A stretch of DNA of 64,000 nucleotides, from IMG/VR virus record IMGVR_UViG_3300021387_000147. One strand, given 5' to 3'. A program made the translations under genes and the position numbers. Below the pieces are notes generated by a model, which did no database searches, was not told the DNA's origin, and worked only from the letters and a program-made list of their open reading frames with translations. Positions 26,323-35,115 of this stretch are shown piece after piece; positions within the stretch are counted from its first letter, which is position 1; each line of letters begins with the position of its first letter. The DNA is from a virus. Its lineage: Duplodnaviria; Caudoviricetes.

Positions 26323-26356
26323 TTACAACCGGGGCAAAGGATTCGTGCAAGGTTGG

Positions 26357-26388
26357 GAATATGGAGGAACACTCCATATTCTTTTTTT
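26357..26388 (+). terminator. Rho-independent terminator
   Basis: GAATATGGAG-gaaca-CTCCATATTC-T7. Confidence 0.75.
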
Positions 26389-26399
26389 ATAAATATAGT

Positions 26400-26807
26400 A
26401 TGCTAACATTAGATAAAAACTCAGATTTTAAACGAATTGAAACTTCCAAGGTCCAATCCAATTATTATGATTTGGATGTTAATATAGTAGATACAGAAGT
26501 ATGGTCTTTTGATGCATTAGACCAAGCTATCGAAAATGTTCTATTAACAAATAAAGGCGAACGCATTTTCAATTATTCTTTTGGAACTCCTTTAATAGAA
26601 CTCTTATTTGAAAATGATGTAAATACAGATTATATCGTTGATAAAGCCTTGGATGTTATAGAAACATGGGTTCCAATAAAAATCATTAGAAGTAAAACAC
26701 AATTACAAAGAGATAAAGAAAACCATGCAATTTCATTCTTTATCTACTATAATTCTAATGACGGAATGATTAGAGACCACTGTTTTGCTAGACGCCTAAG
26801 AAAATAA
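26400..26807 (+). CDS. Baseplate wedge subunit (T4 gp25-like)
   Basis: QAIENVLLTNKGERIFNYSFGT...LLFE; true start MLTLDK at 26400 after terminator and late box. Confidence 0.85.
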   Translation: MLTLDKNSDFKRIETSKVQSNYYDLDVNIVDTEVWSFDALDQAIENVLLTNKGERIFNYSFGTPLIELLFENDVNTDYIVDKALDVIETWVPIKIIRSKTQLQRDKENHAISFFIYYNSNDGMIRDHCFARRLRK

Positions 26808-26884
26808 GAATCTTTTTACTAAGGTCCATTTTACAACTAAATGGATCTTTTTTATATTAACTGCAAAAATCGAGAGATTTATTT

Positions 26885-27420
26885 TATAAATAATAATAAA
26901 ATGGTAAAAGAGAATAGCATATAAATAGCAAATTTTTAGCAACTTTTCTTTTTTCGCAGATTTTTAAGCACATACATAAGCAAATTATCTCTTTTACCTT
27001 AGGTTGATGACTATACCATCTGTTATGTTATTTCAGAAAAATAGTTACCATAGAAGAGGTTTTTTGTAATACGAATCCTTACAAACTATTTTATAAAGTT
27101 TATTTTTATAAAGAGAAAAGGATCCTCGGCTCAACCCAATGAGTTTTAGGTGAAGTGGACCCCAGAAGAAATTCTGAATATAATAACACAAAAGAACAGC
27201 AAGTGTTCAGTGATAAAAGTTTAACGAGCTTTTTATACGCCGTCTTGAGTATTTTTGAATAGTTAAGTCCTTGTACAGGAAGACCACCAGGGTAAAGTCA
27301 AAATGTAAATCTCCTTATACGTGAGAGTCCGATATACTGAAAAGTATTATCCCCATGTTCTATAAGTCTAAAATAGGCTTATAGTTTCAAGGTCCTCTAC
27401 CTGAAAAAATAGTTATCCTA
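26885..27420 (+). ncRNA. Candidate long structured non-coding RNA (or origin transcript)
   Basis: No ORF of 60 aa or more in 26808-27543; TATAAATA at 26885; many stems including 26903-26913/26988-26998. Confidence 0.45.
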
Positions 27421-27447
27421 TAACATTTAATTCTATAATAATTAAAT

Positions 27448-27496
27448 ACATTGGATAACAGAGTTATCCAATGTGTCAATTCCTTAGGAATTGACA
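27448..27496. repeat. Two abutting perfect inverted repeats
   Basis: ACATTGGATAAC-aga-GTTATCCAATGT and TGTCAATTCC-tta-GGAATTGACA. Confidence 0.85.
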
Positions 27497-27543
27497 ATTT
27501 TACTATAATAAATATTCTATAAGAATTATTATATAGGGTTTAT

Positions 27544-29082
27544 ATGTTTAGTGATTATTTGAATAAACAATTTTATTCTTTTATGGATTCTTTAAAGATA
27601 AATTCTTTAAAGAAGAAAAAACATAAACCAATTAATGAAAAGTTTAATTTAATTGGATCAATTGAAATAAGTAAAGATAATCCATATAAAGAAATAGTTT
27701 TATTTAATTTATTAGTTAATCAAACAAAACCTTTAAATGGTTTATATATTCATTTGAATCTAATAGATTATCCTAATAAAGAAAAAGATTTAGAATTATC
27801 ATTACAGTCATTATTACTTGAATTTAGTGATATTATAATAGTCAAATGGCATGATTATCCATCTGAATTTAATGTATTATCAGTCTATCCTTTTCATAGT
27901 GTAGACCATGTTTATCTATTTGACCAATATACAGAATATGATAATGATACAGTCAATTATTTCTTTGAAAATAGAAAAGATAGAGTAATACAGAATTTAA
28001 GTAGTGATAACTTCCATAAAAAAAGAATTTATAAAAATAGTATCTTTCTTTATAATTTAAATGATGATACTTATGAATGTAAAGAAAGAGAAAATGTAAA
28101 AATACCATGTATTGAAAACATGGTCAAAAAAGATGTATTCATTCCAGCATTTACAATAGATGAAAAATTTGATATAGATGCTTTACATAGATTCTATAAT
28201 AATCATATAGAATTGTTTAATATAGTTAATTCATTTAAGAATGAATACAGTATTGCAATTACAGATAAGAATTATAATAACTATAAAGAAAAAGGTCTTG
28301 AAATGGACCTTTATAGAATATTGCATGATAGCGATATAAAAGAAGCTTGGCAAAAAGTATTTCCAGGTTATGATTTTTCTTTATATGGAAATATAAACAT
28401 TCAAGGTATTTTGAATAGTACCATTGAAGTTGCTTCTATTGGATATAATTTCCCAGAATTTTTAATTGAGAATTTAAATACAATTAGACATAAGATAATT
28501 GGTAAGATTGATAAGATAACATTATTGGAAAATAGTCATCATTATCAATTGAGTATGAATAGTAATGTTAGAGATGTATTAGCTCTACGTATGCAAAATA
28601 TCAATTATCTTAATAATATGACTAACCAATATTTTGATAGAACTTGGCCTAATAGAGATGAGAAACCATATTATGGTTTCCACATGTATGAAGATAGTGT
28701 CAAGTATCTTTATGATAACTGTGAACAAGATTATTTGATTATCTTTAATACTAAGGTTATATTAAAGAGTGAATTATTATATGATGAAAATGATGTATAT
28801 TGTGAATATGGCGATTACATCAAAATCTTTAATATGAAAAAGTTGAAAGAATTAAATATAAAATTTGATTCATTTGATCAGTTTTTGAAAGAACTTGAAC
28901 AAAAAGATATAAAGATAACTAAATTGGAAATGGATGCAAAGACAATTACATTGCCAATAGATTTTGATAAATACAATGGTGTAATGTTTATCTTTGCAAG
29001 ATTGAGATATAGAGTAATACAGAAATACTTGCGTGATCATGGAGTGAGCTTAGTTTATGATAAATTTTGGAATAGTCGATAA
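27544..29082 (+). CDS. Degenerate two-domain glycosyltransferase-like protein
   Basis: N-half resembles 20541 GT (QTKPLNGLYIHLNLIDYPNKE), C-half resembles 21877 GT (ITLLENS...QDYLIIFNTK); DxD motifs not recognisable. Confidence 0.55.
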   Translation: MFSDYLNKQFYSFMDSLKINSLKKKKHKPINEKFNLIGSIEISKDNPYKEIVLFNLLVNQTKPLNGLYIHLNLIDYPNKEKDLELSLQSLLLEFSDIIIVKWHDYPSEFNVLSVYPFHSVDHVYLFDQYTEYDNDTVNYFFENRKDRVIQNLSSDNFHKKRIYKNSIFLYNLNDDTYECKERENVKIPCIENMVKKDVFIPAFTIDEKFDIDALHRFYNNHIELFNIVNSFKNEYSIAITDKNYNNYKEKGLEMDLYRILHDSDIKEAWQKVFPGYDFSLYGNINIQGILNSTIEVASIGYNFPEFLIENLNTIRHKIIGKIDKITLLENSHHYQLSMNSNVRDVLALRMQNINYLNNMTNQYFDRTWPNRDEKPYYGFHMYEDSVKYLYDNCEQDYLIIFNTKVILKSELLYDENDVYCEYGDYIKIFNMKKLKELNIKFDSFDQFLKELEQKDIKITKLEMDAKTITLPIDFDKYNGVMFIFARLRYRVIQKYLRDHGVSLVYDKFWNSR

Positions 29083-35003: not shown

Positions 35004-35078
35004 AAAAAAAGCTCATTGGTTTTCGCGTCCAATGAGCCCGAGAATAGCATTTTCTCTATAGCAATTTAGCAATTTAGC
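35004..35078 (-). ncRNA. Candidate ~75-nt late small RNA with UGCUA repeats
   Basis: TATAAATA at 35083-35090, GCTCATTGG/CCAATGAGC terminator 35011-35037 plus T7, no gene-sized ORF; scaffold has its own late box at 34971-34978. Confidence 0.5.
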
Positions 35079-35115
35079 AATATATTTATAACTTTCGTTT
35101 TGTCACTTTTTGCAA

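Follow-up and report, generated by a model that had tools for sequence, protein, structure and literature searches.

A putative large structured RNA gene of a T4-like phage with a diverged cow-rumen-2 core

The longest internal ORF-free gap (26808-27543, 736 nt) of the window, by which we mean the whole stretch of 64,000 nt of phage DNA that was analyzed, very probably carries a gene for a large structured non-coding RNA on the plus strand. That this is an RNA of an uncultured T4-like phage which acts in trans is, as a whole statement, held with moderate confidence; the mode of action in itself, a trans-acting folded scaffold or decoy, was chosen by exclusion and is put forward tentatively as the most likely reading. 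Its length would be no less than about 300 nt (27100-27405), and 400-600 nt is probable. A large plus-strand structured RNA in this gap had already been proposed from the letters of the sequence, and homology together with strong covariation upholds this main idea. The gap also keeps its place as the longest internal one, as that sequence-only reading had it, when ORFs are listed at cut-offs of at least 60 aa and at least 80 aa.

Folding energy alone is weak evidence for a structured RNA, whereas homology combined with covariation is strong evidence. The plus strand of 26885-27420 folds with a z of −2.76, a value that 1 of 100 shuffles equals, and the minus strand with a z of −1.76; the better predicted fold of the plus strand relative to the shuffles and the opposite strand is suggestive only. 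A protein-coding reading of the gap was rejected because no reading frame is open throughout the family. A BLAST search of the gap against phage GenBank records gave no match, and ARAGORN found neither a tRNA nor a tmRNA in the whole window. The features on which the following argument is based are collected in Table 1.

Table 1. Features of the gap, in window coordinates
Feature	Position	Strand	Basis
Intrinsic-terminator-like hairpin (26821-26849) and T run, ending the gp25-like baseplate gene	26821-26857	+	Scan
T4-type late-promoter box TATAAATA, copy 1	26885-26892	+	Exact match; invariant in six relatives
TATAAATA box, copy 2, within the predicted 5' fold	26920-26927	+	Exact match; kept in six relatives
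Possible 5' extension of the RNA: inverted repeat and helix 27008-27014/27041-27047	26897-27096	+	Repeat search; changes in relatives
Weak candidate host-type (early) promoter: GGTTTTTTGTAA, 17 nt, TATTTTAT	27058-27094	+	Likeness to early promoters
5'-domain signature: TCCTCGG, hairpin CUCA-ACCCAA-UGAG, GGUGAAG	27123-27155	+	Signature search; class A alignment
Hairpin CAGAA-GAAA-UUCUG	27163-27176	+	Position of class A second hairpin
Hairpin GAACA-GCAAG-UGUUC	27194-27208	+	Position of class A third hairpin; read from sequence
Diverged cow-rumen-2 core with P1 (hairpin), P2 (long stem) and P3 (inner stem)	27209-27317	+	RF02947 model positions 1-106
Pseudoknot 2: G27210 and U27211 with A27286 and C27287	27210-27287	+	Class A alignment columns
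Pseudoknot 1: 27242-27246 (GUCUU) with 27280-27284 (AAGAC)	27242-27284	+	Covariation, 60 distinct sequences
Hairpin GAUAUACU-GAAA-AGUAUUAUC	27331-27351	+	Matches optional UAURC...AAAAG element of longer class A RNAs
3' hairpin CUAUAAGUCUA-AAA-UAGGCUUAUAG	27360-27384	+	Covariation with L164; loop changes
Conserved 3' tail GGUCCUCUACC (class A: GUCUCUAC)	27391-27401	+	Alignment
Two perfect hairpins (27448-27474 and 27474-27496), then ATTTT	27448-27503	+	Scan; repeats; loop-only changes in relatives
Late-promoter-like box and leader of the 512-aa ORF	27504-27543	+	Box comparison with relatives

The core and its two pseudoknots

A scan of the whole window against the 4227 families of Rfam gave a single match, to cow-rumen-2 (RF02947), at 27209-27317 of the plus strand with 52.1 bits and an E-value of 9.5e-7 (1.4e-8 when the region is taken by itself). 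The score lies below the gathering cut-off of this family (66 bits), and at gathering thresholds nothing was found in the window. The window forms four of the four aligned pairs of P1, six of the seven of P2 and four of the four of P3, mostly with other pair types than those of its relatives (helices 7 and 8: 6/7 and 4/4). The low score despite a full-length match is therefore explained by core helices that are built from different base pairs. The bases GCCGYC, UACAGGANGACC and GUAA stand at the right spacing at 27239-27295, and the six close relatives show no substitution in 27200-27329. Judged by this match, the centre of the gap RNA belongs to the cow-rumen-2 family as a diverged member. 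The sequence-only reading could not match the gap to a tRNA, tmRNA, RNase P or intron consensus; a catalogued family, RF02947, does match it, below the threshold of that family. An Rfam scan including ROOL and GOLLD, which had been suggested at that stage, returned RF02947 only; with E-values of up to 10 allowed, no match was obtained to the models of RNase P, tmRNA, group I and II introns, 6S, ROOL, GOLLD and self-cleaving ribozymes, nor, in 26700-27650, to Polynucleobacter-1 (RF01718).

Covariation was examined in an alignment of 29 sequences, composed of the class A loci described below and the window. Pairing holds in 94.0% of the alignment cells compared with 75.3% in shuffles, and 27 of the 42 pairs have compensatory changes. 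The covariation score is 0.483, compared with 0.133 in shuffles (none of 500 reaches the observed value) and 0.06-0.08 when the partners are slid, so that the check for covariation among homologues, which had also been suggested, came out positive.

Pseudoknot 1 has the general form of GYCNU after GCC paired with ANGAC within ACAGGANGACC, and the window forms five of its five pairs. Among 60 distinct sequences, the variable pair (U27245-A27281 in the window), whose N positions were left unconstrained in the search pattern, is A-U in 52, G-C in six and U-A in two, namely the window and L218. None of the 60 has a mismatch, and each of the minority types occurs on two different sequence backgrounds. 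Pseudoknot 2 joins two bases of the linker before P1 to two bases after GACC. Columns 183/262 of the class A alignment form a pair in all 28 sequences (three pair types), and columns 182/264 do so in 26 of them (four types); the corresponding bases of the window were placed by eye. About 25 near-invariant bases lie in the junctions and loops around the two pseudoknots.

The covariation also bears on whether the gap might act as DNA, for example as a replication origin, a packaging site or a recombination hotspot. The gap is AT-rich and dense in repeats, and the related class B loci adjoin a SegE-type homing endonuclease gene, both of which would suit such an element. However, the covariation preserves pairing including G-U pairs, which would be C-A mismatches on the opposite strand, the covariation of a pseudoknot has no meaning for duplex DNA, and both the Rfam match and the better fold are strand specific. 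We consider a DNA-level element scarcely credible.

All the stems that the sequence-only reading had listed are present, namely GGTAAAAGAGA/TCTCTTTTACC, CAGAA/TTCTG (27163-27176), GATATACT-GAAA-AGTATTATC (27331-27351), CTATAAGTCTA/TAGGCTTATAG (27360-27384) and GTCTT/AAGAC (27242-27246/27280-27284). CAGAA/TTCTG, the hairpin at 27360 and GTCTT/AAGAC, the last of which is pseudoknot 1, are conserved or compensated in relatives. The pair TCCT/AGGA that was thought to nest within GTCTT/AAGAC fared otherwise: it is not conserved, and its bases take part in other helices of the family. The proposed alternative pairing of AACTATTTT (27084) with AAAATAGTT at either 27038 or 27406 is not supported either. 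The segments are complementary, but in L233 and L234 both copies of AAAATAGTT are mutated while AACTATTTT is unchanged, with no compensation, and the copy at 27038 instead pairs with 27008-27014, where an A-U pair is replaced by G-C in a compensatory manner. A closing helix of 27084-27099 with 27399-27414 is likewise broken in relatives and was dropped, together with the pairing of 27038 with 27084.

Three further readings of the core and its surroundings were tried and rejected. In an RNase P-like reading, 5' AAAGUC and 3' UAGGCUU would form P4; UAGGCU belongs to a local covarying hairpin, and no RNase P model matches. A group I intron was considered on account of the resemblance of AGAUAUAGCC to element S and of the homing endonuclease of class B, but the order of the elements is wrong, no intron model matches and there is no split host gene. 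Lastly, GUACAGGAUGA resembles the SELEX consensus of CsrA sites, but its U belongs to pseudoknot 1 and covaries.

Extent, boundaries and transcription of the RNA

As judged from the alignment, the window RNA is probably homologous to the class A family over at least 27123-27401. When the window was left out of the class A sequence profile, the only match of the profile in the window was at 27123-27388 (E 4.2e-6), and the nhmmer envelope on the window ends at 27391. At the 5' side, 27123-27155 aligns to the class A 5' domain, and the combined signature TCCTCGG ... CAACCCAATG ... GGTGAAG occurs once in the window and in none of 100 shuffles. A covariance model of the class A 5' half reached 7.3 bits on the window (E 0.17) with the filters off and gave no match at default filters, a low score that we attribute to the absence of one helix and a different outer helix in the window. 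Homology of the 5' domain to class A is thus likely but not proven.

The hairpins that follow occupy the same places as those of class A. At the position of the second hairpin, which covaries in class A, L234 has CAGAU-UUUU-AUCUG, a flip of A-U to U-A; the third (helix 4) has compensatory changes at four of four pairs in class A. The hairpin at 27331-27351 is invariant in close relatives. The 3' hairpins of class A covary too, and L164, whose core is nearer to that of the window, carries GUGCUUGUCUA-AAA-UAGGCAAGCAC, that is, a GUCUA-AAA-UAGGC hairpin with the outer pairs flipped. L233 and L234 alter this hairpin in the loop only, to UCC, and thereby resemble class A with its loop UUCCU. In the window, the hairpin ends with UAGGCU and is followed by the GUCUCU-like tail.

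The six near relatives, which were obtained from one metagenome scan with the window-type 5' signature, differ from the window in loops and linkers or by compensated changes. The hairpins at 27448-27496 vary in their loops only, and a single loop base of the terminator hairpin at 26821-26857 varies. Between the window and its nearest record, the gap has 5 differences in 736 positions compared with 445 in 8,488 over 8.5 kb, a low divergence which does not prove selection, as some coding stretches are equally conserved. Two of the records call for a remark. L234 (LXOW01212239.1) contains, at about 1830-1900, a duplicated segment joined by a Nextera adapter (CTGTCTCTTATACACATCT) and Ns, which is an assembly artefact within the RNA locus. 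L228 (ENA UPTA01000722, 38 kb), which is nearly identical to the window, is labelled as activated-sludge metagenome, in contrast with the ruminant-gut labels of the contigs L236 and L237 from goat-gut MAGs.

The RNA locus is flanked by a terminator on its 5' side and by two hairpins on its 3' side. The gene 5' of the gap encodes a gp25-like baseplate wedge protein (Pfam PF04965; PHROG baseplate wedge), and the 512-aa ORF 3' of the gap, which starts at 27544, matched no known family. The terminator-like hairpin noticed in the sequence-only reading was recovered by the scan with its T run, and the region has four terminator-like sites compared with 0.4 expected. The hairpins at 27448-27496 and the following ATTTT are likely to be the end of the transcription unit, at which the proposed transcript would stop. 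The box in the leader of the 512-aa ORF is exactly TATAAATA in L233 and L234 and has one mismatch in the window. Farther upstream, the gp25-like gene probably starts at ATG 26400 rather than at 26361; a TATAAATA box at 26388-26395 lies 4 nt 5' of this in-frame ATG, and a hairpin at 26355-26383 ends the preceding gene.

The two TATAAATA boxes within the gap are exact at 26885 and 26920, where they had been reported, and are conserved in all six close relatives, which makes an RNA gene behind a late promoter plausible. The window contains 26 copies of TATAAATA compared with 15.3 expected, several of them directly 5' of ATG codons. The RNA is proposed to have its own transcript, made from the late box at 26885 and/or from the weak host-type promoter at 27058-27094. 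A start from the former would put the 5' end near 26898. The latter, which would give an alternative start near 27100, is a weak candidate: it resembles the early promoters of the phage (GGGTTTCCAA, 16 nt, TATATTTTAC) and the conserved class A promoter, and its −7 box is a poor match. The early promoters of the phage at 9083-9111, 10975-11003 and 46566-46594 (minus strand) share GGGTTTMCAA, 16-17 nt and TATATTWTAC. They are close to the class A RNA promoter and fit a Bacteroidota-type host promoter (TAnnTTTG), which we take to be the type of both.

Where the RNA begins depends on the status of the 200 nt upstream of the class A-like part. In this stretch, GGTAAAAGAGA/TCTCTTTTACC form a perfect 11-nt inverted repeat (26903-26913/26988-26998), and 26897-27096 folds with a z of −1.99. 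At 27010-27045, four sequences have an A-U pair where L233 and L234 have G-C, and position 26911 changes from A to G in relatives with a G-U pair retained. These two changes in close relatives, the first of them compensatory, suggest that this stretch is folded too, although they amount to few events in one lineage. We therefore favor a fold beginning near 26900, by which the RNA may be 500-600 nt long and start at the late promoter.

Alternatively, the gap might hold two units, 26885-27095 being either a short late transcript in its own right or a gene-start remnant and the cow-rumen-2-type RNA starting only near 27100. The rumen-type (class A) homologues have no counterpart of 26897-27096, and class A, L164 and L218, which are without an upstream equivalent, start at their own promoter. 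The order of terminator, TATAAATA and ATG is the usual layout of a gene start in this phage, and a remnant would consist here of TATAAATA, 8 nt, ATG and a seven-codon ORF; the phage also has another small late-promoter RNA unit, at 35004-35090. However, there is no terminator between 26900 and 27100, the upstream stretch carries the compensatory and G-U changes described above and is as conserved as the flanks of the core, and the host-type promoter that a second unit would use is weak. We regard the division into two units as a doubtful but serious alternative. The small unit at 35004-35090 (minus strand) has UUGCUA repeats and an 11-nt segment, AUGCUAUUCUC, that is perfectly complementary to GAGAAUAGCAU at 26910-26920 (plus strand), a region with UAGCA repeats; a match of this length is near chance level for 64 kb.

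Relatives of the RNA and its possible mode of action

The core was searched for with the pattern GCCGNC, 20-36 nt, TACAGGANGACC, 5-8 nt and GTAA, which matches 92 IMG/VR contigs against a rough chance expectation of about 7, and the matches fall into two classes. The class A loci are true cow-rumen-2 RNAs (90-110 bits) in phage contigs. They can be aligned over 295-350 nt, of which the Rfam motif is the middle, in the order of a 5' domain with the invariant loop CAAYCCAAUG, two variable hairpins, the Rfam core, an optional element, the 3' hairpin with UAGGCU and the GUCUCU tail. Their conserved promoter consists of TTTACAAAA, about 14 nt and TATATTTGA, the RNA starts within about 10-25 nt of it, and the gene that follows has a separate late promoter.

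The class B loci (L069, L074, L141, L145, L146, L148, L153-L158, L166, L171, L175, L182, L191, L199, L203, L214, L215) are not recognized by RF02947. They share with class A the signature GCCGYC ... GGUACAGGANGACC ... GUAA and the covariation of pseudoknot 1, and Polynucleobacter-1 (RF01718) lies about 75 nt 5' of the core on the same strand at 20 of the 20 loci tested. From this constant placement 5' of a like core, Polynucleobacter-1 would be the 5' part of a sister RNA. The core of class B is followed by a further conserved 3' region, the real RNA being about 450-500 nt, and the P1 loop covaries with the segment after P2, which amounts to an extra pseudoknot. In the aligned class B loci, a gene for a SegE-type GIY-YIG homing endonuclease lies directly upstream of Polynucleobacter-1.

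In 185,579 genomes of prokaryote species, the same pattern gave five matches, of which three were chance matches in GC-rich coding DNA. The other two are class A copies on contigs of 191 kb (L236, JAFQXD010000042.1) and 173 kb (L237, JAFRFB010000097.1) binned as Methanobrevibacter from goat gut. Both have a class A RNA, a phage-type promoter and a TATAAATA box, and they are probably misbinned T4-like phage genomes. By this search, the RNA family is almost restricted to phage genomes. Several copies can occur in one record (4, 3, 2 and 3, including 4 in a complete 424-kb phage and 3 in a 411-kb phage). No tRNA gene adjoins 47 of 48 related loci; a 136-kb phage contig (L170, 4369-4722, minus strand) with two cow-rumen-2 copies also has a tmRNA (tag ANTYAMAA).

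We suggest that the RNA would fold into a compact knotted body which, during infection, would work in trans by specifically binding a protein or another RNA, either as a platform or as a decoy, and that it would be neither an antisense regulator nor the leader of the next gene. There is no conserved neighbor gene; the window, class A and class B have unrelated proteins encoded downstream, and the contexts have in common only a loose association with baseplate genes. These unrelated contexts, the own promoter of class A, the separate late promoter of the next gene and the convergent downstream gene of some class B loci point to an independent RNA gene rather than a leader.

It could also be supposed that the RNA is a cis-acting element of long phage transcripts, either a mark for processing or stability or a promoter-proximal antitermination element that carries transcription past the hairpins at 27448-27496. 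The copies in the window and class A are always oriented like the flanking genes, and several copies stand in different intergenic places of one genome, both of which would also suit a cis-acting element. The class A RNA starts only about 10-25 nt from its promoter, and strong hairpins separate the window RNA from the next gene. However, the element precedes unrelated genes that usually carry a late promoter of their own, a convergent gene lies after it at some class B loci, and an RNA of at least 300 nt with two pseudoknots far exceeds the known antitermination RNAs, of which the put RNA of HK022 has about 70 nt. A cis-acting element is, in our judgment, unlikely.

Another possibility is that the RNA is catalytic or self-assembling, its knotted core being the active site of a ribozyme or its copies forming RNA-only multimers like those of ROOL and GOLLD. 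No ribozyme, ROOL or GOLLD model matches at E-values of up to 10, no cleavage site or symmetry was identified, and there are no tRNA genes nearby, in contrast to ROOL and GOLLD. On the other hand, the RNA is large and phage restricted and has some 25 near-invariant bases around its pseudoknots, large ornate bacterial RNAs tend toward unusual biochemical roles (PMC5737381), and RNA-only complexes are described for ROOL and GOLLD (bioRxiv 10.1101/2024.12.08.627333). We consider a catalytic or assembling RNA very unlikely, and a trans-acting scaffold or decoy remains our preferred reading.

A wider and quite improbable proposal is that of a phage-specific RNA superfamily in which one doubly pseudoknotted core has a new biochemical activity, cow-rumen-2 and Polynucleobacter-1 being united as fragments of its larger genes; this activity might be that of a ribozyme, of a module binding a ligand or tRNA, or of an RNA-only assembly of large T4-like phages during infection.

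Each of two Rfam motifs, orphans since 2010 and 2017 respectively, appears to be a piece of a much larger phage RNA gene, and the genes have one knotted core in common. The conservation of these RNAs reaches from phages of the ruminant gut to the class B contigs. Up to four copies occur in 400-kb phages, and cellular genomes have practically none. Their conservation, copy number and near-absence from cells make them good candidates for a new RNA function in infection; our literature search found no functional study. The locus in the window offers defined boundaries, helices and two pseudoknots that are amenable to direct testing.

Comparison with known systems

Cow-rumen-2 reportedly comes from the set of 224 RNA candidates published by Weinberg et al. 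2017. The main text of that paper (PMC5737381) does not mention it. The window RNA agrees with the 106-nt Rfam model in a full-model match on the plus strand, in the three helices and in the core bases. It differs in that it scores 52 bits against the 66-bit cut-off, many of its base pairs are replaced and one helix of the 5' domain is absent. The printed model covers only the middle third of the real RNA; it has neither of the pseudoknots, includes no 5' domain, 3' hairpin or promoter, and gives no indication of the phage setting.

Polynucleobacter-1 was described as a possible cis-regulator of Burkholderiales and fresh water (Weinberg et al. 2010, PMC2864571). It has no match in the window, whose 5' domain is probably that of the rumen-type (class A) RNAs. 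ROOL and GOLLD resemble the window RNA in being large, intricate RNAs of phages or prophages from rumen or lake samples. However, they show no match to it in sequence or structure, and the window RNA is smaller, with several diverged copies per genome. ROOL and GOLLD lie near tRNA genes, whereas the window RNA does not adjoin any.

The rnaC and rnaD genes of T4 (NC_000866, 70908-71171) had been considered as relatives, and no sequence likeness was seen on reading. They lie in a tRNA cluster and are shorter, at 119-139 nt. They are non-coding RNAs of a T4-type phage that adjoin segB, a gene for a Seg homing endonuclease, just as the class B RNAs adjoin a SegE-like gene.
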